IMG/VR virus record: IMGVR_UViG_3300045988_005753
From: a virus
Taxonomy: Duplodnaviria; Heunggongvirae; Uroviricota; Caudoviricetes
Reading direction: 5' to 3' (one strand)
Length of the DNA: 64,000 nucleotides
Program-made: the position numbers and the translations under genes
In this document: one piece after another, positions 36,499 to 62,148 of the stretch
Numbering within the stretch: the stretch's first letter is position 1
How the letters are laid out: each line of letters starts with the position of its first letter
Notes under the pieces: model-generated
Seen by the model: only the letters and a program-made list of their open reading frames with translations
What the model was told of the DNA's origin: nothing
Databases searched by the model: none

Positions 36499-36762
36499 TT
36501 GAGAGAGAATAAAATGTTTAACAAAAGTAAAGCTGTGAGTCATGTAGCAAAAGTTGACAGCAAGATTGAAGAACTTGAGCGCATTCTTGCAAATGCCAGA
36601 GAGTCGATAATTAAAGAGGTTGAAGCTGTTGAATCTCAAATGCAGCACCTAATGCTTAAACGTCAAGAGCTACGTGAGCATCTGGAATATATTGAAACAC
36701 GAGAGCTAAAGGTTAACAGATATTTTAAGGAGTCCAAATGTTTAACTCAAGAGAATCAGTAA
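36499..36762 (+). CDS. hypothetical coiled-coil protein
   Basis: 87 aa ORF. Confidence 0.4.
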   Translation: MRENKMFNKSKAVSHVAKVDSKIEELERILANARESIIKEVEAVESQMQHLMLKRQELREHLEYIETRELKVNRYFKESKCLTQENQ

Positions 36763-37493
36763 AAAACTGGAATCTTCGTTGTGGAAACACTCAAAAGCAA
36801 CCTTACAGTGATGAGTATTGGGAATCTTTGAAATCTCAATCTCTGTGTATGCTTGAAGAAGCAAAAGAGCTTGTAAAAGCAATTGAAGAGAAAGACCCCA
36901 TTGAGACACTGGATGCTCAGGCAGATTTGCAATATGTTCTTGACGGTTTGATTTACCTGTCACAACATGACCATAACGGTGCTATGAAAGCTGTTTGCCA
37001 TAATAATGACCTGAAGTACACAGACGACTATGAAGAAGCTTTAAAGCGTCTTGCAGATATTGAGAAGCGTACTGGTCAAGAGTGTATCATCAGAATGTCA
37101 GTAGTTGATGGTAAAGAGTGGTATGCGATTGTTCGTGCAGCCGATGGGAAGATTATGAAGCAATCAAATCTCCCTAAAGTTCAGCTTGGTGAATACATTG
37201 TAGAACTTGAAAGCCAAGAACTTTTTGTGGTAGTATCTGACACATGCGTTATCTGCAAAGGTATTGTATGTAGCTTAAAGGATTTGGGTGTAGATGGTTT
37301 TGTAGAAGTTAATCCAATTACCTCTAAAGCAGATAAAGATTTCTGTAAAGAGAATGGACTATGGATTGCAGATATTGTCTACTATGATGGTGAGCAGTTC
37401 CATGTAACCTCATACCCGAAACTGAATTATGATGCTAATAACCTGAAGTGCTGGTTAAAAGGGGTTGGTTATAATGGATTCACAGAACATTAA
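36738..37493 (+). CDS. hypothetical protein with possible MazG-like NTP pyrophosphohydrolase N-terminal domain
   Basis: EEAKELVKAIEEKD...ETLDAQADLQYVL resembles the EExxE/D helix motifs of all-alpha NTP pyrophosphatases. Confidence 0.3.
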   Translation: MFNSRESVKNWNLRCGNTQKQPYSDEYWESLKSQSLCMLEEAKELVKAIEEKDPIETLDAQADLQYVLDGLIYLSQHDHNGAMKAVCHNNDLKYTDDYEEALKRLADIEKRTGQECIIRMSVVDGKEWYAIVRAADGKIMKQSNLPKVQLGEYIVELESQELFVVVSDTCVICKGIVCSLKDLGVDGFVEVNPITSKADKDFCKENGLWIADIVYYDGEQFHVTSYPKLNYDANNLKCWLKGVGYNGFTEH

Positions 37494-46643: not shown

Positions 46644-46656
46644 GCAGATACTATAA

Positions 46657-46680
46657 GGGAACTGTAAAGGTTCCCTTTTT
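46657..46680 (+). terminator. rho-independent terminator
   Basis: GGGAAC (46657-46662) pairs with GTTCCC (46670-46675); then TTTTT. Confidence 0.55.
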
Positions 46681-46694
46681 ATTTTGGAGATAAT

Positions 46695-47210
46695 ATGTAT
46701 CTGTCAAACCTGAAACGTTCTGCTGCAATGTCAGTGTTAAGACTCAGTTTTGATGAGCGTCAAGAGTTTATAGACTCCCACAAATATGACCCTTCAAATT
46801 CTAATCACATGGTTCTTTGGAATCGTGAGAGTACTCGTGAAAGAGCATTATTTCGATATTACCCACACTACACCATAGACAACCTATATGAATGCTTTGT
46901 TGTGAAGAACACCATTACAGTACTCAATAAACTTTGCAGATACACAGGCAGTCAATCCTTCACATTAGGCCACCACAAACCTGTTACAAAAGGTGGTGAA
47001 CATCACTGTGCAAACTGGTTTATTCAGACTAAAGCTGATAACCAGAAGCAAGGAGATAGCCTTTTAAGTGCCCCTAAGATGACCTATGAAGAGCAAGAGA
47101 GATATATCAAAAATAATATGCCAAATGTGCTTGACAACAACTATACAGATTTGGCAATATCTCTCCTGTTGAAGTTCGAGATAGTTTATAGGGCAACTTA
47201 TAATGGCTAA
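46695..47210 (+). mobile_element. putative free-standing HNH endonuclease
   Basis: GHHKPVTKGGEHHCANWFIQTKADNQKQGD follows the HNH pattern His-His...GG...N...N-x-K. Confidence 0.4.
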
Positions 47211-47481
47211 AGAAAAGTGGGAGATTTTACCATTAGTCAGTGAAGGAGGCAATGGTTGTGAAATGTACATGATACGTGGTCATGTTCCAGAGCCAATCGC
47301 ACTTGAGATGGTAAACAACTTTACAGATGGTTCTTACAAAGACTTAGGCGAACCAACTGTCAAGCAACAATGGGTTAAACCTGTACCAGACAGCACAGGT
47401 AACTGTAGTGTACTTTATCACGTTGTAGACCCTGCAAAATGCAAATCTGCAATGGCAGTAACAAACGTAACTTTTGATTGA
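47203..47481 (+). CDS. hypothetical protein
   Basis: 92 aa ORF. Confidence 0.4.
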   Translation: MAKEKWEILPLVSEGGNGCEMYMIRGHVPEPIALEMVNNFTDGSYKDLGEPTVKQQWVKPVPDSTGNCSVLYHVVDPAKCKSAMAVTNVTFD

Positions 47482-48374
47482 GAGAGAAAACTATGAAAAC
47501 ATCTATACGTGTTACAGTTCATTCACCAACTAAAGGAACTCATGAAGAGGAGTTTAACATCATCCAATTTCCTTCTGGTGAGATTGGTGGACACTTTTCG
47601 CCAGAGTTTGTTGATTTTACTGCTTATGCAGCATCATCCATCAACAATGTGATTATGATTGTAAAAGGTTATGATAAAGACACATTGTTTGCTGTGGCAC
47701 TTGCTAAAGAAGCAATTGATGATTTAGTACCTCATAAGTTTGCTATGAAGACCATTATCTTTTACTATTTGCCAAATGCACGTTATGACCGTCACATGTT
47801 TAAAGGTGATGCAGCAGCTTTGAAAGTGTTTGCACAACAGGTTAATGCAATGGGTTTTGATGCAGTCTGTGCAGTTGACCCTCACAGCTATGTACCAGAT
47901 AACCTGTTTAACTGCTTCCAGAGTATTCCTCAAAAGGAAATTGCAGTCCACTATGCAAATGACCCACTGGTTGATTACTTAGTAGCCCCAGATGCAGGTG
48001 CTGCTAAGAAGATTGCAGAGACTGCTAAAGAGGTGGATAAACCATACATCACAATGTCTAAAGTGCGTAACCTTAAGACTGGTGAAATTACTGGTATGCG
48101 AATCCTTGATGATGTTGATTTGACAGATAAAACCGTCATGATTCTGGATGATATTTGTGATGGGGGCCGAACCTTCATAGAAGCAGCTAAACATCTTCGT
48201 GAAGCAGGTGCAAAACGTGTGGAACTCTATGTAACACATGGTATCTTCTCTAAAGATGTTGAAAACCTTCTTGACAACGGCATTGACCACATCTACACTA
48301 CAAACTCTTTAGGGGAAGCTAAAGACCGTGGTTTAACACATTATGGTCAAGTTACCGTAGCAAACCTTGATTAA
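47478..48374 (+). CDS. ribose-phosphate pyrophosphokinase family protein (Prs-like; possibly an ADP-ribose pyrophosphokinase)
   Basis: 298 aa; VMILDDICDGGRT matches the PRPP-binding motif; N-terminus diverges from housekeeping Prs. Confidence 0.65.
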   Translation: MREKTMKTSIRVTVHSPTKGTHEEEFNIIQFPSGEIGGHFSPEFVDFTAYAASSINNVIMIVKGYDKDTLFAVALAKEAIDDLVPHKFAMKTIIFYYLPNARYDRHMFKGDAAALKVFAQQVNAMGFDAVCAVDPHSYVPDNLFNCFQSIPQKEIAVHYANDPLVDYLVAPDAGAAKKIAETAKEVDKPYITMSKVRNLKTGEITGMRILDDVDLTDKTVMILDDICDGGRTFIEAAKHLREAGAKRVELYVTHGIFSKDVENLLDNGIDHIYTTNSLGEAKDRGLTHYGQVTVANLD

Positions 48375-48383
48375 AACTTTATA

Positions 48384-48404
48384 GGGGCTTTTAAGCCCCA
48401 TTTT
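48384..48404 (+). terminator. weak terminator/attenuator hairpin between the Prs-like and Nampt-like genes
   Basis: GGGGC/GCCCC stem followed by ATTTT. Confidence 0.3.
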
Positions 48405-48419
48405 GAGAGAGATTAAAAG

Positions 48420-50201
48420 ATGACTAAATCACTTTATGCAGTACCAGCAGGTTTAAACGCAGATGCTTACAAATCTGGTCACATCTACCAGTATCCTAGT
48501 GCAACAGAGTACTTGATGTTCAACCTGACACCACGTAGCGATAAATGGTTTAACAGCCCATTAGCAATTGATGGTGTAGTTGCTTTTGGTATTCAACGTT
48601 TTGTTAAAGATTACCTGATAGACCACTGGAACGCCACCTTCTTCGAACGTGACAAAAAAGAAGCAATTGACGAAATCTTAGAAGTCATGAATGGTGTTCT
48701 GGGTAAAGATGCTATTGGTCGAGAACATTGGGAAGCACTCCACGACTTAGGTTATCTACCAGTTGAAGTCTACGCTGTAGAAGAAGGAACAGTTGTCCCT
48801 ATGCGTGTACCAATGATTGTCTTCCAGAATACTGTTTCAGGTTTCCATTGGGTAGCGGGGTATCTGGAAGATGCTTTTTCTGCTGAGATTTGGAAGGCTT
48901 GTACCATTGCAACTATTGCATTGCACTACAAACGTATCTGTAAGAAGTGGTCTGACCTTACTTGTGACAACGACTTACATTTGCCTTATCAGTGCCATGA
49001 CTTTGCTATGCGTGGTATGTCCGGCTTTACTGATGACGCATTTAACGCTGTAGGCCACTTAACCAGCTTTAAAGGAACCGATAGCTTCCCTGCTGTATAC
49101 ACGGCTAAACGCATCTATGGACAGTCCTACCCAATTTCTGATATTGGCAGTTCTGTACCAGCCACTGAACACTCTGTAATGTGTGCAAACATTGCTTGGG
49201 AAGGTGGTAACGAGTTAATTGAAGAAGAAAGACGCTTTAAAGGTGAGTTACAAACCTTCCGTCGTTTCTTAACAGAAACTTACCCAACGGGTATTGCAAG
49301 TGTTGTTTCAGATACTTATAACTTCTGGAGAACTGTATCAGTCATATTACCAGAACTCCGTAAAGAGATTATGGAACGTAATGGCAAACTGGTAATTCGT
49401 CCTGATTCTGGAGACCCTGTACATATTGTCACAGGTTATAAAGCAATCCACTTAGAGTGTGCTAAAAAGGCTTATTACGAACACCTAAGCAAGCTGGAAG
49501 CCAGTGACACAATGTTGAATGCTGTTCTGAACATGAAGCTTGAGGATATTAACTATGGTATTGCTGGATGGCTACTGTCAGAAGGCTACGAAATGGTTGT
49601 TGACAGAGAAGACTTTGAAGTTGCTGACACAGTGATGTTGAAAAACGCTTATATGGTTGGTTCTGCAAACGTTGTAACACGTCCTGTAGCAGAGATTGAT
49701 GGGGCTATTAAGACCCTGTATAACATCTTTGGAGGGACTATCAACTCTAAAGGCTTTAAGGTACTTGATGAGCACATTGGACTCATCTATGGTGACTCTA
49801 TCACGTTGGAACGTGCAAACGAAATCCTGAAGCGTTTGTATGAAATGGGTTTTGCAAGCTCTAACGTAGTGTTTGGTGTAGGTTCTTACACTTACCAGTA
49901 CATGACTCGTGACACCTTTGCATTTGCTGTCAAAGCAACTCTTGCAAGCATTGGTGGTAAAGAGATTATGCTTGCAAAAGACCCTAAAACAGATAGTGGT
50001 GTTAAGAAGTCTGCTTTTGGTGGTGTAGCACCTATGTGGGATGGTGATAATCTGAAAGCTGTAGATGGTTATGGATTCCAGAGCTTTGAAGATGTACTTG
50101 AACATCCAGCTTGTGCTTTACGTTTAGTCTTTAGCGAATCTGAGCAGTTTGGCTACACAACTCTTGGAGATATTCGAAATAATATTGACAAGCAGCTTTA
50201 A
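48420..50201 (+). CDS. nicotinamide phosphoribosyltransferase family protein (Nampt/NadV-like)
   Basis: 593 aa; N-terminal ...ADAYKSGHIYQYP... and ...HDFAMRGMSG... resemble conserved Nampt motifs (DSYK...YP; DFGxRG). Confidence 0.7.
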   Translation: MTKSLYAVPAGLNADAYKSGHIYQYPSATEYLMFNLTPRSDKWFNSPLAIDGVVAFGIQRFVKDYLIDHWNATFFERDKKEAIDEILEVMNGVLGKDAIGREHWEALHDLGYLPVEVYAVEEGTVVPMRVPMIVFQNTVSGFHWVAGYLEDAFSAEIWKACTIATIALHYKRICKKWSDLTCDNDLHLPYQCHDFAMRGMSGFTDDAFNAVGHLTSFKGTDSFPAVYTAKRIYGQSYPISDIGSSVPATEHSVMCANIAWEGGNELIEEERRFKGELQTFRRFLTETYPTGIASVVSDTYNFWRTVSVILPELRKEIMERNGKLVIRPDSGDPVHIVTGYKAIHLECAKKAYYEHLSKLEASDTMLNAVLNMKLEDINYGIAGWLLSEGYEMVVDREDFEVADTVMLKNAYMVGSANVVTRPVAEIDGAIKTLYNIFGGTINSKGFKVLDEHIGLIYGDSITLERANEILKRLYEMGFASSNVVFGVGSYTYQYMTRDTFAFAVKATLASIGGKEIMLAKDPKTDSGVKKSAFGGVAPMWDGDNLKAVDGYGFQSFEDVLEHPACALRLVFSESEQFGYTTLGDIRNNIDKQL

Positions 50202-50215
50202 AAGTATATGATAAG

Positions 50216-50238
50216 AGGCTCCTACGGGAGCCTTTTTT
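50216..50238 (+). terminator. rho-independent terminator
   Basis: AGGCTCC, loop TACG, GGAGCCT, then TTTTTT. Confidence 0.6.
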
Positions 50239-50255
50239 AATTTCTGGAGAAGATT

Positions 50256-50777: not shown

Positions 50778-53144
50778 ATGCGCATGGTAAATGACCACGC
50801 AGAAGTGATTAAGAGTTCAACTTCTTTAGAGACGTCTCAAGCACAGATTACAATGACACCTGAGATGTTCAGCCTTTTGAGTTCTGGTGTATACACCTTT
50901 AAAGAAAGGGCAGTGATTCGTGAACTGTCATGTAACGCAGTAGATGCTCAGAAAGAAGCTGGAAAAGAGAACATTCCATTCCATGTGCATTTACCTACTC
51001 GTTTTGAGCCTTACTTCGAAGTTCGTGATTTTGGAACTGGATTGACTCATGATAAAGTTATGAGTTTGTACCTAAACTATGGAGCTTCTACGAAGAATGA
51101 CTCTAATGACTACATTGGTGCAATGGGTATCGGCTCAAAGTCACCATTTTCAATTGCTCAGTCATTCACAGTATCTAGCTATGTTGACGGTGTTGTTAAT
51201 AAGTACTCTGTTTATCTTGAGAATGGTATCCCTCAAGTAACTAAGCTGACAACTAACCCAACAAAAGAACCTAATGGTTTAGCTGTACGTGTGGCAGTTG
51301 CTGACCACCGTATCTCAAAGTTCTTTGAAGAAGCTGGGAATGTGTACTCATACTTCACTGTAAAACCAGAAAGTAATATTGAGTACGACGATGTATTAGC
51401 AGATATGAACGTCATTGCCCGTGAAGAAGGTGTTTATGATGCCATGATTCATAAGCAAAGCTGGCGTTCTAGTGGTAACAGGACAGAGTTTAATGTGGTG
51501 ATGGGTAACATTGCCTACCCTGTTAATATGGAAGCATTACTTGGTGATGATTTCTTCAAAGTATTGCCAGAATTTTTCCGTAGGAGCGTAGACCTTGTAA
51601 ACATCTACATGCCTATTGGTTCAGTTGCTATTGCAGCTTCTCGTGAAGCATTGCAGATGAATGACACGACAAAAAATGTTATCATTGAGGCTACTAAAAA
51701 GATAACTGAAGCAATTACAAAGGATGTTATCAAGAAAGTTAATAGCCAACCTACACTCATGGATGCTGCACAGGCTTATGCTGAGTTACGTTTGAACTCA
51801 CGAGAGATGTTTAATGCTGTGTGTCCAAAGCTAGAGTGGGGAGGTGTTAAGCTTGATTCTCTGGAAGAAGAATTACTAAACATTCGTCGTGGAATTATCT
51901 ACGCAGAAGACGGCTCAGTCATTTACGAACGTGACGGTAAAGGCAATATCAAGGTTGATAGGAACGGGAACAATATCCCTAAAGTAGATTATCTTTATGA
52001 CCCAGTTGCTTATGTCAAGTTCAACTCTTTAGAGAGTAAGATTCGTGCAACATCGCTTTCCTACACTCAAGAGGCAAGTATGTTCAATATCTTTGGCGCA
52101 ATGCGTAAAAGTCAAATTGAACAGTTTTTGTTTGTTATAAATGACCGTCGAAATAAAAATGGTACTGAGAAGACTGTAGGACGCAACCAAATCTTGCGTG
52201 GTGCATGTCGAGACTATGCCAGTGAGTCAAGTCTGTTTCACAGATACAATGGTATTGTCTTTGTATTCTCTACAGAGAAAGAGCTAGACGACTTAATCAA
52301 TCTGCACAAACTTGATAAAAGCTTGTTAAAGATTGTGAAGATGTCTGATAAGGAACATCATTATCAGCGTAAAGAAGCTGTAAGAGGCGTTGTAAAACTT
52401 TGGAAAGCTGTTCCAGCAGAAGGTGTAGCTTCCTATAAAGAGGTTTCAGAGGACTTAGATACGATTGAAGAGCCTCAGCTTTATATTAAGGCAGTAGGCG
52501 ACACAGTTGATGGCGAATGTTTTTGCTCATCTCCAGAAGATGTAGCTAAGTCAGTTGCCAATGTCATTGGAAAGAAAGTATATGTTTTCCGAAAAGCAAA
52601 TTGGAAAAAGATACCAGAAGACTGGATTGAAGTAGATGAGAAGCTCTTGAATGACAGCTTAACTGATGTTCACTGGATTAACCATAACAGGTATATGACA
52701 CGTATCTATATGAATGGTGTCCTTGACCTTACAAGCAGTTGGATTATTGCCAGAAACTTTACGTTCAATAACAGGAAGATTTCTCGTGGCTATTGTTATT
52801 CGCGGGATACAAACAAAACTATCTTCTTAGAAGGTAATGAAGATGCTGTAGAGGCAATGTTTGGTAAAATCCAATACGTTGCTGCACCATTTGCATACAC
52901 TTACATTATTAGTGTGTTGCAAGATTTGAAAAGGTGTCTTGATAATGATACAAAGCTTTACAAGAAAATTAAGAAAGCTGGTGACCGCATGGTCATTAAG
53001 GTGACAAACTACCTTTCAAAAAGAAAACAAGAAAACTTCTTGCTTTCTCATTTAGATTGGAATAAAGTGTCACCTATTGAAGTGAGTAAGTTCTTAGGCT
53101 TTGATGTGAAGTGTGTTCCAGAAGGGACTACAATTTACGATTAA
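50778..53144 (+). CDS. GHKL-family ATPase, rIIA-like
   Basis: 788 aa; RELSCNAVDA (N box, ExxxNAxDA), DFGTGL (G1 box) and GAMGIGSKS (G2 box) define a Bergerat-fold ATPase; a 369 aa partner gene follows. Confidence 0.5.
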   Translation: MRMVNDHAEVIKSSTSLETSQAQITMTPEMFSLLSSGVYTFKERAVIRELSCNAVDAQKEAGKENIPFHVHLPTRFEPYFEVRDFGTGLTHDKVMSLYLNYGASTKNDSNDYIGAMGIGSKSPFSIAQSFTVSSYVDGVVNKYSVYLENGIPQVTKLTTNPTKEPNGLAVRVAVADHRISKFFEEAGNVYSYFTVKPESNIEYDDVLADMNVIAREEGVYDAMIHKQSWRSSGNRTEFNVVMGNIAYPVNMEALLGDDFFKVLPEFFRRSVDLVNIYMPIGSVAIAASREALQMNDTTKNVIIEATKKITEAITKDVIKKVNSQPTLMDAAQAYAELRLNSREMFNAVCPKLEWGGVKLDSLEEELLNIRRGIIYAEDGSVIYERDGKGNIKVDRNGNNIPKVDYLYDPVAYVKFNSLESKIRATSLSYTQEASMFNIFGAMRKSQIEQFLFVINDRRNKNGTEKTVGRNQILRGACRDYASESSLFHRYNGIVFVFSTEKELDDLINLHKLDKSLLKIVKMSDKEHHYQRKEAVRGVVKLWKAVPAEGVASYKEVSEDLDTIEEPQLYIKAVGDTVDGECFCSSPEDVAKSVANVIGKKVYVFRKANWKKIPEDWIEVDEKLLNDSLTDVHWINHNRYMTRIYMNGVLDLTSSWIIARNFTFNNRKISRGYCYSRDTNKTIFLEGNEDAVEAMFGKIQYVAAPFAYTYIISVLQDLKRCLDNDTKLYKKIKKAGDRMVIKVTNYLSKRKQENFLLSHLDWNKVSPIEVSKFLGFDVKCVPEGTTIYD

Positions 53145-53223: not shown

Positions 53224-54333
53224 ATGACTACTAAAACTAAAGCACAGATTGACGCAGAAATTTACAAACTGGTTAAAGAAGGTAAGCTGACTAAAACAGC
53301 TATTGCACAGAAATTTAATACTTCAACCCGTTCAGTCGGTCGTGCTGTAGAGCGTCATGAAGCAACCTTAAAAGGTAAGAAAAAGGTTGCTTCTACACCA
53401 GCTACGAAGACTTTGAAGCAAGTTGCTAAGACCTTTAAGAAGAAAGCTGACAAACCAGTTGAAAAGGTAGTTAAAGATGCTGTACAGAAAGCTCCAGTAA
53501 ATAAACTGCACGAAGCTATGCAGAAAGATGACAAGATTGAGTACATGATTACTGGTGATTCTGTAATTATGACTTATGGTTCAGAATCTGAAATTGTTGA
53601 GTCTACTCATCCGAACTATCAAGAGATTGTAGTTCATGTTGTGAAAGGTGAGTTCAAGAAAGCATTTGAACTGATGAACATTCGTAAGTCTATCGAAAAC
53701 TTCACTCAGGGTGCTATCACAATCAAAGGTGACAAGCTATTCTACGGTGCTGTTGAGATGCGTTCTACTCTGGTTGACCGTATTCTTCACATGATGAAAA
53801 CTGGTGATAAAGGTTTTGAACGACTTGTAATGTTCTTCGAAAAACTGATGGAAAACCCATCTAAAGATTCTGTAGAACAACTTTGGGGATTTGTATCTCA
53901 CCTTGATGTTGAAATTGATGAAGAAGGCTACATCATTGGTTGGAAGAAAGTCTCTACTCGTGAAGGCAAGCTGGTTGACTCTCACACCTACAAAGTACCT
54001 AATGATTTGGGTAACATTGTAGAGATGCCACGTTGGATGGTTGATAATAACCGTAACGTAACTTGCTCTCAAGGTCTTCATGTTGGTGCTTGGGATTACG
54101 TTCGTTGCTTCTCAGGTGATACCATCCTGAAGGTTCGTGTCCATCCACGAGATGTTGTATCTGTTCCAACTGATTACAACGATATGAAGATGCGTTCCTC
54201 TCGTTATGAAGTTGCAGCAATCGTTGATAATCAACGTAAAGTACTGAAAGCATGGGATGGTAAGACTGAAGCTTTGCATGTCATCGTTGGCACTGCTGGT
54301 GAACTCATCTCTCAACGTAAACGTGAAATCTAA
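53224..54333 (+). CDS. hypothetical protein, rIIB-like by position
   Basis: 369 aa gene directly after the GHKL ATPase. Confidence 0.3.
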   Translation: MTTKTKAQIDAEIYKLVKEGKLTKTAIAQKFNTSTRSVGRAVERHEATLKGKKKVASTPATKTLKQVAKTFKKKADKPVEKVVKDAVQKAPVNKLHEAMQKDDKIEYMITGDSVIMTYGSESEIVESTHPNYQEIVVHVVKGEFKKAFELMNIRKSIENFTQGAITIKGDKLFYGAVEMRSTLVDRILHMMKTGDKGFERLVMFFEKLMENPSKDSVEQLWGFVSHLDVEIDEEGYIIGWKKVSTREGKLVDSHTYKVPNDLGNIVEMPRWMVDNNRNVTCSQGLHVGAWDYVRCFSGDTILKVRVHPRDVVSVPTDYNDMKMRSSRYEVAAIVDNQRKVLKAWDGKTEALHVIVGTAGELISQRKREI

Positions 54334-54433: not shown

Positions 54434-54982
54434 ATGAAGAAATTGATTCTAGGCTTGTGCTTAATGTTTACAGCACACTTATCTTATGCAGTTGACTGCC
54501 CAGAGCTAACAATTAGCCAAAAAGTAAACATGTTAAAAGCTTACCAGTATGGTGAGAATAATATGGGGAAAGGCTGGGGTATTACTCTAGCAGCTATAGC
54601 CTTACAAGAGTCAGAGTTAGGTCTGAAGGTAGAGAATAAAAAGACCCACGACTATGGTATTTTCCAGAATCACTTGAAGACTGTTGTAAAGCGTAACAAA
54701 ATTAGTCCTAATGTGGCTAAAAAGAAACTCTTAAAAGACTTTGACTATGCAGCAAAAGAGACACATAAAGAGCTTGAGTTTTGGACTAAGGTGCATGGTC
54801 ACCCAAAGTCAAAGAAGACTTTACAAAAAGTTTTAGCATCATATAATGCTGGGTATTCGTACAAAATCCCTAAAGCTAAGAAATACTCTCAAGATGTCTA
54901 TAACAATATGAAAGTTATCGCTCAATGTGAATTTGCAACAAACATTTCTAAGGTAAATCATGAAAAAATTAAGAAAGTCTGA
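54434..54982 (+). CDS. secreted lytic transglycosylase (SLT-domain) protein
   Basis: Signal peptide MKKLILGLCLMFTAHLSYA; IALQESEL (catalytic Glu-Ser), DYGIFQ and ASYNAGYS resemble the ES / GLMQ / AYNxG motifs of SLT domains. Confidence 0.5.
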   Translation: MKKLILGLCLMFTAHLSYAVDCPELTISQKVNMLKAYQYGENNMGKGWGITLAAIALQESELGLKVENKKTHDYGIFQNHLKTVVKRNKISPNVAKKKLLKDFDYAAKETHKELEFWTKVHGHPKSKKTLQKVLASYNAGYSYKIPKAKKYSQDVYNNMKVIAQCEFATNISKVNHEKIKKV

Positions 54983-55655
54983 TGAAGTCCTGTGCCATGC
55001 TTATGACTTGCATCCTCATGAGTTAGGTCTTGATTCCTGTGTATGGACTCCAGAACAGTGCAGGGATTTTGAAGACACTGCAAGAGAAGTTGTATGTTCA
55101 CTTGAAGAGTTCCACACATCAGAACCAATTGTGAACGTTGTGGACAAAGAGACTGGACAGGCTATAGGTGTAAGGCGTGACAGTTTAGTCATAGTCAATA
55201 AAGACCTTGTAGAAAAAGGTAACCTCATCTTAGCAGATATTGATGGTGTTCTTACAAATTTTAATCACGAAGATTGCTCAACGGAATTGACTGATGGGTC
55301 ATTCTCACAGTACACTAATCTTCTTGACTCTGTAAGAGCAAAACCAACGTATGTTTTTAGTATTATTGATGCAATTGCTAATCATGCTGCCATTGGACTC
55401 TTGACAGCGAGAGGTGAATCTCAGAGAATACCTACTGAGATGTTTTTAAGGCATAACATAGAGCATGATTACATGCTTTTTATGCGTGGTTTTGGAACTA
55501 ACTCTATAAGTGCAGAAAGTTTAAAAGTGAGGATGATTCAGTCTTGCATTCTTCCTTATTTTAATATAGTATGCTTTATAGAAGATACAGAGAAGAATGT
55601 TCAGAAGGTAAACAGAATCCTTCCACACATTAAAACCATGTTAGTTAAACATTGA
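54960..55655 (+). CDS. HAD-superfamily phosphatase-like protein
   Basis: LILADIDGVL matches HAD motif I (DxDGV/T); 231 aa with a Cys-containing N-terminal extension. Confidence 0.35.
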   Translation: MKKLRKSDEVLCHAYDLHPHELGLDSCVWTPEQCRDFEDTAREVVCSLEEFHTSEPIVNVVDKETGQAIGVRRDSLVIVNKDLVEKGNLILADIDGVLTNFNHEDCSTELTDGSFSQYTNLLDSVRAKPTYVFSIIDAIANHAAIGLLTARGESQRIPTEMFLRHNIEHDYMLFMRGFGTNSISAESLKVRMIQSCILPYFNIVCFIEDTEKNVQKVNRILPHIKTMLVKH

Positions 55656-57684: not shown

Positions 57685-58470
57685 ATGGGTATTGTAAAAA
57701 TCATCAATGGCGATATCTTTGCCGCATTTGATAAAGGTAAGTTTGACATTATTGGTCACGGTTGCAACTGTATGAATTTAATGGGTGCAGGTATCGCTGA
57801 CAAGATTTCTAAACTTTACCCAAAAGCATATGAGACAGATACAGAAATCTATCTATATGCAGGTGGCATAGGTCACAAACCCTGTGAAAATTTACTGGGT
57901 AATTTCTCTGTAGCACGTTTAAAACAAGGTCGTATAGCTAACCTTTACACTCAGCTTAAGACTGGTAAAGATGCCCGATACAGTGCTTTAGAGTCATCTT
58001 TGAAACAGCTTAACAGATACTGTGAAGTTAACCAGTTGAAGAAGGTTGGTCTACCTATGATTGGTGCAGGTATCGGTGGACTTGACCCTCAAGCTGTCAC
58101 AGTTATCATCAATCAGGTGATGAAGAGTGTAGATGTTTATCTGTATGTCTATGAAGGAGAGATGTACCACAAGTTACGCTCAGGTTGGAAGAACTACTGT
58201 GAACCAGAATACTTTGCAGGTGTAGCAGTGTTCACGGATAACGCAGTTACCCTCTTCAGACGAAGAAAAGCTAAGATACATCAAAGTAACCCTCCGGTTG
58301 AAAGGATGTCTCTAAGTAACGCTCTAGTTACCCACCTGTCGAAGAGCAATCACAGAATAGCTGTGACATTTGGTAGTGATGCAGATGCTTACATCTATGC
58401 AAGAACTGATGAGGATATCGAGGCAATTTTCTCATCACCGGAAGTTACCTTCTTAGACGCAAAGAACTAA
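57685..58470 (+). CDS. macro-domain protein (ADP-ribose binding/processing)
   Basis: DIIGHGCNCMNLMGAGIA and GLPMIGAGIGGLD resemble the two glycine-rich signature segments of macro domains (xNAANxxLxxGGGV and AFPxISTGxYG). Confidence 0.45.
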   Translation: MGIVKIINGDIFAAFDKGKFDIIGHGCNCMNLMGAGIADKISKLYPKAYETDTEIYLYAGGIGHKPCENLLGNFSVARLKQGRIANLYTQLKTGKDARYSALESSLKQLNRYCEVNQLKKVGLPMIGAGIGGLDPQAVTVIINQVMKSVDVYLYVYEGEMYHKLRSGWKNYCEPEYFAGVAVFTDNAVTLFRRRKAKIHQSNPPVERMSLSNALVTHLSKSNHRIAVTFGSDADAYIYARTDEDIEAIFSSPEVTFLDAKN

Positions 58471-61605: not shown

Positions 61606-62148
61606 ATGAAATGCTATCACGGAACTACTCAAGAAAATTTCCTCAACCTGATTAATAACGGTGATAAACCATCAGGCGCATGGAATTGTTCGGATATGGA
61701 CGGCAATTTTTACGTGTATCCAGAAAATAAAATCTATGGCGACGATGAGGAAGAAATAGCATCAGAAGGTATCCAACAAGCTCTAGGAAATGCCACTATC
61801 ACCGCAGCTTTCCAGATGAAAACCCAAAATATTGTTATCTTAGAACTCGATATTCCAGAGGATGAGCTGAATGATGATTATTCTTGTGATAATATGTCGA
61901 GTGTAGCAAGTTTTACAGAGTACTTTGATGTAAATTGGATTAAAAAGGTCTATACAACAGAGTTTAACGCTATGTATTCACCTTTTTGTCTTCCTTCATT
62001 GGATAACCCAAATTTAAACTATCTTGATGAGTCTCTGGAGCTTCTTGCTAAAAGTGTTCAACAGTCGGACAGTATTCAGGTTTTTTGTGACATCATGGAT
62101 ACACTGACAGGGAACATTGCAGAAGAGGATTTAAAGAGCTTTTTCTAA
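61606..62148 (+). CDS. hypothetical acidic early protein
   Basis: 180 aa ORF. Confidence 0.5.
   Translation: MKCYHGTTQENFLNLINNGDKPSGAWNCSDMDGNFYVYPENKIYGDDEEEIASEGIQQALGNATITAAFQMKTQNIVILELDIPEDELNDDYSCDNMSSVASFTEYFDVNWIKKVYTTEFNAMYSPFCLPSLDNPNLNYLDESLELLAKSVQQSDSIQVFCDIMDTLTGNIAEEDLKSFF

Follow-up and report, generated by a model that had tools for sequence, protein, structure and literature searches.

A predicted NAD+ reconstitution pathway 1 (NARP1) operon, adps-namat, in a Felixounavirus genome

We analysed a 64,000-nucleotide stretch of phage DNA (IMG/VR record IMGVR_UViG_3300045988_005753, hereafter the window) for two adjacent genes, one resembling ribose-phosphate pyrophosphokinase (Prs) and the other nicotinamide phosphoribosyltransferase (Nampt). 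The comparisons make it very probable that they are the adps and namat genes of a NARP1 operon, which restores nicotinamide adenine dinucleotide (NAD+). This reading is preferred over plain salvage through nicotinamide mononucleotide (NMN) because NARP1 was first found in an orthologous operon and because both proteins carry discriminating features. The initial annotation of this DNA had pointed out the two genes, and they are indeed two same-strand open reading frames (ORFs; 47478..48374 and 48420..50201) that contain the motifs cited for them (VMILDDICDGGRT, DAYK..YP and HDFAMRG). It had also correctly named both candidate chemistries, NMN salvage and NAD+ rebuilding from ADP-ribose, but held that sequence could not tell which applies. 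That judgement was too pessimistic, as orthology to genes 79-80 of phage Bas63 (80% and 97% identity, same synteny), together with the Adps and Namat signatures, selects NARP1.

NARP1 was discovered in Bas63 genes 79-80 (Osterman et al., bioRxiv 10.1101/2024.02.11.579819). Bas63 is the BASEL phage JohannRWettstein (MZ501086; accession from the Osterman supplement), a Felixounavirus of 87.1 kb. Deletion of genes 79-80 made the phage sensitive to SIR2-HerA and lowered NAD+ in infected cells, and ADP-ribose pyrophosphate (ADPR-PP, m/z 720.010) was seen only with wild-type Bas63 in combination with the defence system (bioRxiv 10.1101/2024.02.11.579819). PhageMaP, an independent genome-wide knockout study, found that either single deletion caused a 1e4-1e6 drop in plating on Sir2-HerA, which complementation restored.

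The Prs-like protein as Adps

The mechanical ORF of the Prs-like gene begins with TTG at 47478 and has 298 amino acids (aa). The true start is likely ATG 47493, giving 293 aa, because a GAGAGAG Shine-Dalgarno-like run precedes this ATG and the Bas63 orthologue is annotated from it. The run resembles the one before namat. By family searches, the ORF matches Pribosyltran (E=1.6e-11), Pribosyl_synth (E=4.9e-10), PHROG 619 "ribose-phosphate pyrophosphokinase" (E=5e-98) and TIGR01251 (124 bits, cut-off 113). A profile comparison with housekeeping Prs, which the initial annotation had proposed as a check, gave 43-107 bits with the Prs equivalog models, below every one of their cut-offs (296-536). 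The N-terminus had been described as divergent, and the housekeeping profiles align only from about residue 60-90.

Window Adps shares 80% identity with Bas63 gp79 (235/293, gap-free), 31-36% with the Adps proteins of ICP1, SPbetaL1, Gary, A24 and vB_VIPPAEUMC01, and 24% with E. coli Prs. Among these Adps comparators, the ICP1 and SPbetaL1 enzymes have demonstrated activity; the ICP1, SPbetaL1 and Gary sequences were taken from Osterman's supplementary table. Lys190 (nt 48060-48062) aligns with the catalytic K185 of ICP1 and K162 of SPbetaL1, as in the PRPS-like two-domain fold, and equivalents of ICP1 F18, R87, H121, D161, K185, D212, D213, C215, D216 and F221 are all present. The conserved acceptor-groove residues are F26, R97, H131, D167, D219 and D220, most of which occur in Prs too, so that this feature is necessary and not discriminating. 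The donor-site pyrophosphate loop has been remodelled in Adps (ICP1 C215-S220, then F221), and this form is conserved among Adps homologues. At this site (nt 48147-48176) the window protein reads DDICDGGRTF, the ICP1 protein DDICDGAASF and E. coli Prs DDMIDTGGTL. In the sequence alignment, window Adps ends before the C-terminal helices of Prs (alpha11-alpha12) and, like other Adps, is without most of a 23-residue stretch of E. coli Prs. The namat gene starts 45 nt past the adps stop codon, and a Namat gene is reported in the immediate vicinity for 97% of the Adps clade. By its identity to seed members and its signature residues, the window protein is assigned to the Adps clade and not to housekeeping Prs. 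A sequence search of solved structures with Adps returned canonical Prs enzymes only (best 4twb), from a set evidently without the ICP1 Adps structures.

The Nampt-like protein as Namat

The Nampt-like protein is 97% identical to Bas63 gp80 (578/593, gap-free). It matches NAPRTase (PF04095, E=2.9e-34), PHROG 448 "nicotinamide phosphoribosyl transferase" (E=1.6e-200) and NF006629 (465 bits, cut-off 405). Sequence and fold searches of solved structures both ranked the SPbetaL1 Namat crystal structure (9w5w/9w5x) first. An AlphaFold2 model (mean predicted local distance difference test score, pLDDT, 93.3) superposed on this crystal structure with a template modelling score of 0.95 (normalised to target), ahead of NadV and mammalian NAMPT. 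The catalytic core residues D15, Y17, F195, R198, D221, H251, R327 and D329 are invariant in a 40-sequence alignment; their references in SPbetaL1 are D13', Y15', F189, R192, D215, the catalytic His, R306 and D308.

According to the structural paper, an adenine "selectivity clamp" separates Namat from housekeeping Nampt. The third position of its loop holds Arg, Lys or Tyr, the loop provides a stacking residue, and in Bas63 Namat this is the fourth residue. The window loop, S-D-K-W, has Lys at the third position followed by Trp, which is the stacking position of Bas63. The clamp-helix motif of window Namat matches the published Namat signature. At the same position, Haemophilus HdNadV has GAQTYQRNTRD and the Xanthomonas (Xcc) Nampt GGALLQKVDRD, neither of which fits the Namat consensus, and the aromatic clamp residues are missing from true Nampts. 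The 89-residue domain inserted in window Namat has no recognisable fold, and the closest relatives of the protein that lack this insertion are chromosomal.

Proposed mechanism and points that weigh against it

In the predicted pathway, a host defence such as SIR2-HerA, type I Thoeris or DSR2 would first split NAD+ to ADP-ribose and nicotinamide. Adps would then transfer a pyrophosphate from ATP to the terminal ribose of ADP-ribose, at its 1'' position, with ADPR-PP and AMP as products. Namat would finally exchange the pyrophosphate for nicotinamide and yield NAD+ directly, with neither an NMN intermediate nor an adenylyltransferase. The two enzyme steps have been shown in vitro, first for the SPbetaL1 pair and later, for the Adps step, with the ICP1 enzyme: Adps converted ADP-ribose and ATP to ADPR-PP, and Namat converted ADPR-PP and nicotinamide to NAD+, with a preference for ADPR-PP when phosphoribosyl pyrophosphate (PRPP) was also offered. 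We infer that the window's own proteins, including the different N-terminal allele of its Adps, behave like their Bas63 orthologues.

Several points weigh against this reading. The in vitro enzymology and the structures were reported only for the more distant SPbetaL1 and ICP1 homologues (31-38% identical), none for Felixounavirus proteins, and Bas63 Adps "did not purify well". The N-terminal 180 residues of window Adps are just 71% identical to the experimentally tested Bas63 allele. ICP1 Phe92, which contacts adenine, aligns with Met102 of window Adps, with Phe103 adjacent. Without ADPR-PP, Namat can still act on PRPP like a Nampt in vitro; given this activity, some NMN might also form in vivo. 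Co-transcription of the genes and the role of the intergenic hairpin come from consensus scans only.

Two N-terminal alleles of adps

Within adps, only the first ~540 nt diverge from Bas63: identity over this segment is 71.5% overall, with 56% at the start of the gene climbing to 86%. Elsewhere, identity to Bas63 is 91-95% in the remainder of the operon and in the neighbouring genes, and 96% for the C-terminal domain of the Adps protein. Identity to the N-terminal segment (47493-48030) was bimodal among 254 related records: 156 shared at least 90% identity with the window, 97 fell at 60-80%, and one lay between. The 97 records are of the Bas63 type. By this count the window carries the majority N-terminal allele, and Bas63, the phage tested experimentally, carries the minority one. 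The catalytic and ligand residues are all common to both alleles. Recombination or selection may have produced the split.

Alternative readings

Some phages add a Macro-domain ADPR-1''-phosphate phosphatase (Adpp) inside the NARP1 operon and thereby defeat the aRES system (NARP1-AP; bioRxiv 10.64898/2026.01.28.702374). The window encodes one Macro protein, a candidate ADPR-1''-phosphate phosphatase unlinked to NARP1, with a Poa1p-like Macro domain at its N-terminus followed by ~100 C-terminal residues that carry no annotation. If this distal protein dephosphorylated ADPR-1''-phosphate to ADP-ribose for Adps, the pair would also defeat RES-type (aRES) NAD+ phosphorolysis. The motifs H-x-CNC..G-x-GIA and P-x-IG-x-G are common to the window protein and the Macro protein encoded between adps and namat in Vibrio phage VPG01, the two being 29% identical across the full length of the latter gene. 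The published Adpp screen was limited to genes at most two places from NARP1 and would miss a gene at 57685-58470. NARP1-AP was defined by a Macro gene in the operon, within two genes; the six genes flanking the pair on each side carry no Macro domain, the sole Macro gene of the window lying ~12 genes from the operon, past rIIA/rIIB and the lysis genes. Moreover, the family occurs in 2849 phage records, T4-like phages included. The function of the Macro protein is read from sequence, and a nearby polynucleotide kinase gene suggests a role in RNA repair instead. We therefore regard a NARP1-AP-like function as unlikely, at perhaps one chance in several. If it were true, the Felixounavirus NARP1 would function as NARP1-AP even though operon-based surveys score it as plain NARP1. 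The Macro protein is conserved across Felixounavirus.

The polynucleotide kinase gene lies at 54960-55655 (+). A 543-nt ORF at 61606-62148 (+) has the position and length of bas63_0107, to which it is likened on these two grounds only; the knockout study noted that the bas63_0107 product resembles the NAD-binding domain of RNA 2'-phosphotransferase. The kinase, this ORF and the Macro phosphatase could be an RNA-repair set that also handles ADP-ribose phosphates.

Classical salvage is a far weaker alternative to NARP1. The Prs-like enzyme would make PRPP from ribose-5-phosphate, the Nampt-like enzyme would make NMN, and the host NadR, or PncC with NadD/NadE, would complete NAD+. The Pfam, PHROG and NCBIfam family names point to this route, and Namat does make NMN from PRPP in vitro. 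However, Bas63 still overcame SIR2-HerA in a pncC nadR double-deletion host, in which both routes from NMN to NAD+ are absent. SPbetaL1 Adps yielded no product in the control reaction for Prs activity, and Namat given both donors produced NAD+ only. The window proteins themselves argue in the same direction, with Adps scoring below every Prs equivalog cut-off and Namat possessing the adenine clamp that is absent from Nampts. Classical salvage is thus very improbable.

The initial annotation saw no NMN adenylyltransferase (Nmnat) in the window and took this absence to leave the ADP-ribose route open, a route that the absence does favour; one of the findings that it named as speaking for the other side, an Nmnat encoded elsewhere in the genome, was not made in our searches. 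Pfam scans covered 83 of the 95 window ORFs of at least 55 aa; the other 12 are ten structural-region (capsid/tail) ORFs, rIIB and one 70-aa ORF. Nmnat (CTP_transf_like), Nudix, NadR and PnuC families were found neither in these 83 ORFs nor in 27 Bas63 proteins from the part of that genome outside the window. NARP2, which uses a phage Nmnat, and NARP3, which uses a PnuC-like transporter and a NadR-like enzyme, are on these grounds excluded as far as testable. An adjacent Adps and no Nmnat, the combination that marks Namat, were found in the window and the Bas63 remainder, this phage's own remainder being outside the data. A NARP2-type arrangement, Nampt with an Nmnat encoded elsewhere, could draw on the roughly 36% of the genome that would lie outside the window for a phage close to Bas63 in genome size, but it is the least credible reading of all, since neither Nmnat nor Nudix turned up in the scans of either genome, NARP2 Nampts belong to a clade of their own without Adps neighbours, and the Bas63 protein is labelled "Adps-associated" in Osterman's table.

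Operon and gene neighbourhood

The window is assigned to a Felixounavirus genome from its DNA, which shares 95-97% identity with numerous E. coli and Salmonella phages. Searching with 3.7 kb around the pair retrieved 257 phage records, nearly all Felixounavirus-like (Escherichia, Salmonella, Shigella and Citrobacter hosts), the best being Escherichia phage KEP3 (96.8% identity). Upstream lie nrdA, nrdB, nrdD and nrdG, and downstream rIIA, rIIB, polynucleotide kinase, spanins and the Macro-domain "phosphatase", as in a Felix O1-like myovirus. The gene order from nrdD/nrdG through rIIA/rIIB is common to the window and Bas63. The features of the region are listed in Table 1.

Table 1. Coordinates of the predicted NARP1 unit, its protein features and the distal Macro gene
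Feature	Coordinates	Strand	Remarks
Terminator-like hairpin with T-run	46655..46677	+	9-bp stem, 4 GC pairs, tail TTTATTTTGG; likely upstream boundary of unit
171-aa gene	46695..47210	+	bas63_0077 orthologue, 94% identical; PHROG 3500; weak HNH similarity
92-aa gene	47203..47481	+	PHROG 4726; overlaps end of 171-aa gene, directly upstream of adps; 95% nt identity to bas63_0078
adps, predicted ADP-ribose pyrophosphate synthetase (Prs-like, 293 aa)	47493..48374	+	mechanical ORF 47478..48374
Stem-loop GGGGCT-TTTA-AGCCCC between adps and namat	48384..48399	+	followed by ATTTTG and GAGAGAG ribosome-binding-like run
namat, predicted nicotinamide ADP-ribose transferase (Nampt-like, 593 aa)	48420..50201	+	Bas63 gp80 orthologue
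Selectivity-clamp loop, residues 40-50 SDKWFNSPLAI	48537..48569	+	identical to Bas63
Inserted alpha/beta domain (89 residues), residues 340-428	49437..49703	+	not in SPbetaL1 Namat nor Nampt
Selectivity-clamp helix motif GSYTYQYMTRD, residues 488-498	49881..49913	+	identical to Bas63; matches published Namat signature
Terminator-like hairpin with T-run	50213..50236	+	10-bp stem, 5 GC pairs; directly 3' of namat, likely unit end
Macro-domain (Poa1p-like) protein, 261 aa	57685..58470	+	PF01661 E=7.8e-8; PHROG 335 "phosphatase"; 7.5 kb downstream of pair

Between the two terminator-like hairpins lie four genes whose ends overlap or are close, and adps and namat are probably co-transcribed with the two small upstream genes as a unit bounded by these hairpins. 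The downstream stem-loop has the same sequence in Bas63, where the T-run is one T shorter. The initial annotation had also noted a weak hairpin between adps and namat. The 45-nt spacer does hold a 6-bp GC-rich stem-loop, and the 56-nt region that contains it has a predicted folding energy of -12.6 kcal/mol (z=-2.6). Window and Bas63 agree at every stem position of this hairpin and differ only in the loop. As a terminator this hairpin was rejected; the consensus scan did not call it, and only four T follow. A more distant relative, Salmonella phage vB_SenM_SB18 (L007:4648-7830), whose Namat is 46% identical, carries an inserted gene for a 165-aa HNH endonuclease in the space separating adps from namat. 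Adpp, Nudix and Nmnat genes were considered as companions beside the pair and rejected, none being present within six genes on either side.

The 171-aa gene is a neighbour in the same terminator-bounded unit and stands outside the NAD+ chemistry. PhageMaP reported that Bas63 gp77 counters retron Ec67; that paper names gp77 a GIY-YIG protein, and only weak HNH similarity was seen here for the product of 46695-47210. The block from 46695 to 50201, comprising the two small genes, adps and namat, may be a small anti-defence cluster. The 114-aa gene bas63_0081, which lies between namat and the next gene in Bas63, has no homologue anywhere in the window by local tblastn, and its position (50202-50255) holds just the conserved terminator.

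Directly downstream of the NARP1 unit, both on the + strand, are a 788-aa ORF at the position of Bas63 rIIA (50778-53144) and rIIB (53224-54333, PHROG 609). The 788-aa ORF is called rIIA by position and length, its Pfam scan giving no rII match. The Bas63 knockout study reported that g84 and g85 (Bas63 rIIA and rIIB) counter the qatABCD defence system. A MazG-like nucleotide pyrophosphohydrolase (PF01503, PHROG 2144) is encoded among the replication genes at 36738-37493 (+).

Comparison with known systems

The window operon is most like Bas63 NARP1, with which it shares genus, gene order, gene lengths (293 and 593 aa), the Namat clamp loop and helix, the stem of the intergenic hairpin and the downstream terminator stem-loop. 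It differs from Bas63 in the N-terminal allele of Adps and in the missing bas63_0081. With the NARP1 of SPbetaL1 and the Adps of ICP1 (PMC13586617), the window pair has in common the two-enzyme architecture, the catalytic Lys, acceptor-groove residues and DDxxDG..F loop of Adps, and, for SPbetaL1, the catalytic core and aromatic clamp helix of Namat. The identity to these proteins is only 31-32% for Adps and about 37-38% for Namat. Unlike SPbetaL1 Namat, the window protein has the 89-residue inserted domain and a smaller insert after HSVMCAN, and its clamp loop uses Lys-Trp and not Arg.

NARP2 of Vibrio phage KVP40 (Nampt and a bifunctional Nmnat) likewise restores NAD+ with a phage enzyme of the Nampt fold. 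It contains no Adps, needs Nmnat and uses PRPP, whereas the window pair has Adps and no Nmnat was found. NARP1-AP of Vibrio phages Gary and VPG01 (Adps-Adpp-Namat; bioRxiv 10.64898/2026.01.28.702374) shares the Adps and Namat families and an encoded Poa1p-like Macro domain, but the window Macro gene stands outside the operon, 7.5 kb away, and its product has an extra C-terminal region of ~100 residues. Housekeeping Prs (24% identical to window Adps) differs in keeping the C-terminal helices.

The bacterial NrtR-regulated "prs-nadV" operons (Rodionov et al. 2008, PMC2330246) have the same gene pair in the same order. They differ in being chromosomal, in standing beside the gene of an ADP-ribose-responsive repressor and in lacking the insertion domain. 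NrtR represses these operons until ADP-ribose releases it, and in 2008 the second prs was described as having an unexplained role (PMC2330246). On a Klebsiella michiganensis chromosome (L008:3211-6491) we observed an NrtR-like gene (Nudix and WHD_NrtR) divergent from an Adps-like gene that is followed by a Nampt-like gene. The Klebsiella Adps-like protein is 48% identical to window Adps over 188 aa and 28% identical to E. coli Prs, and related chromosomal Nampt-like proteins in the 40-sequence alignment carry the Namat motif. The NrtR-linked chromosomal operons may represent a bacterial form of NARP1 that is switched on by its own substrate. In the literature library searched, no paper named both "NrtR" and "NARP1".

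Significance

NARP1 has already been described, and the pair in this window is an isolate-level new copy of a system characterised genetically, biochemically and structurally, so that little is added scientifically here. The small additions are that the tested Bas63 Adps is the minority allele in the genus and that the Namat of this lineage has an inserted domain. Public records of this phage group still say "ribose-phosphate pyrophosphokinase" and "nicotinamide/nicotinate phosphoribosyltransferase", labels that should be changed to Adps and Namat. The relabelling marks the two genes as a predicted counter-defence against NAD+-depleting immunity, which is relevant to picking Felixounavirus phages for therapy or biocontrol against hosts with SIR2, TIR or DSR2-type systems.

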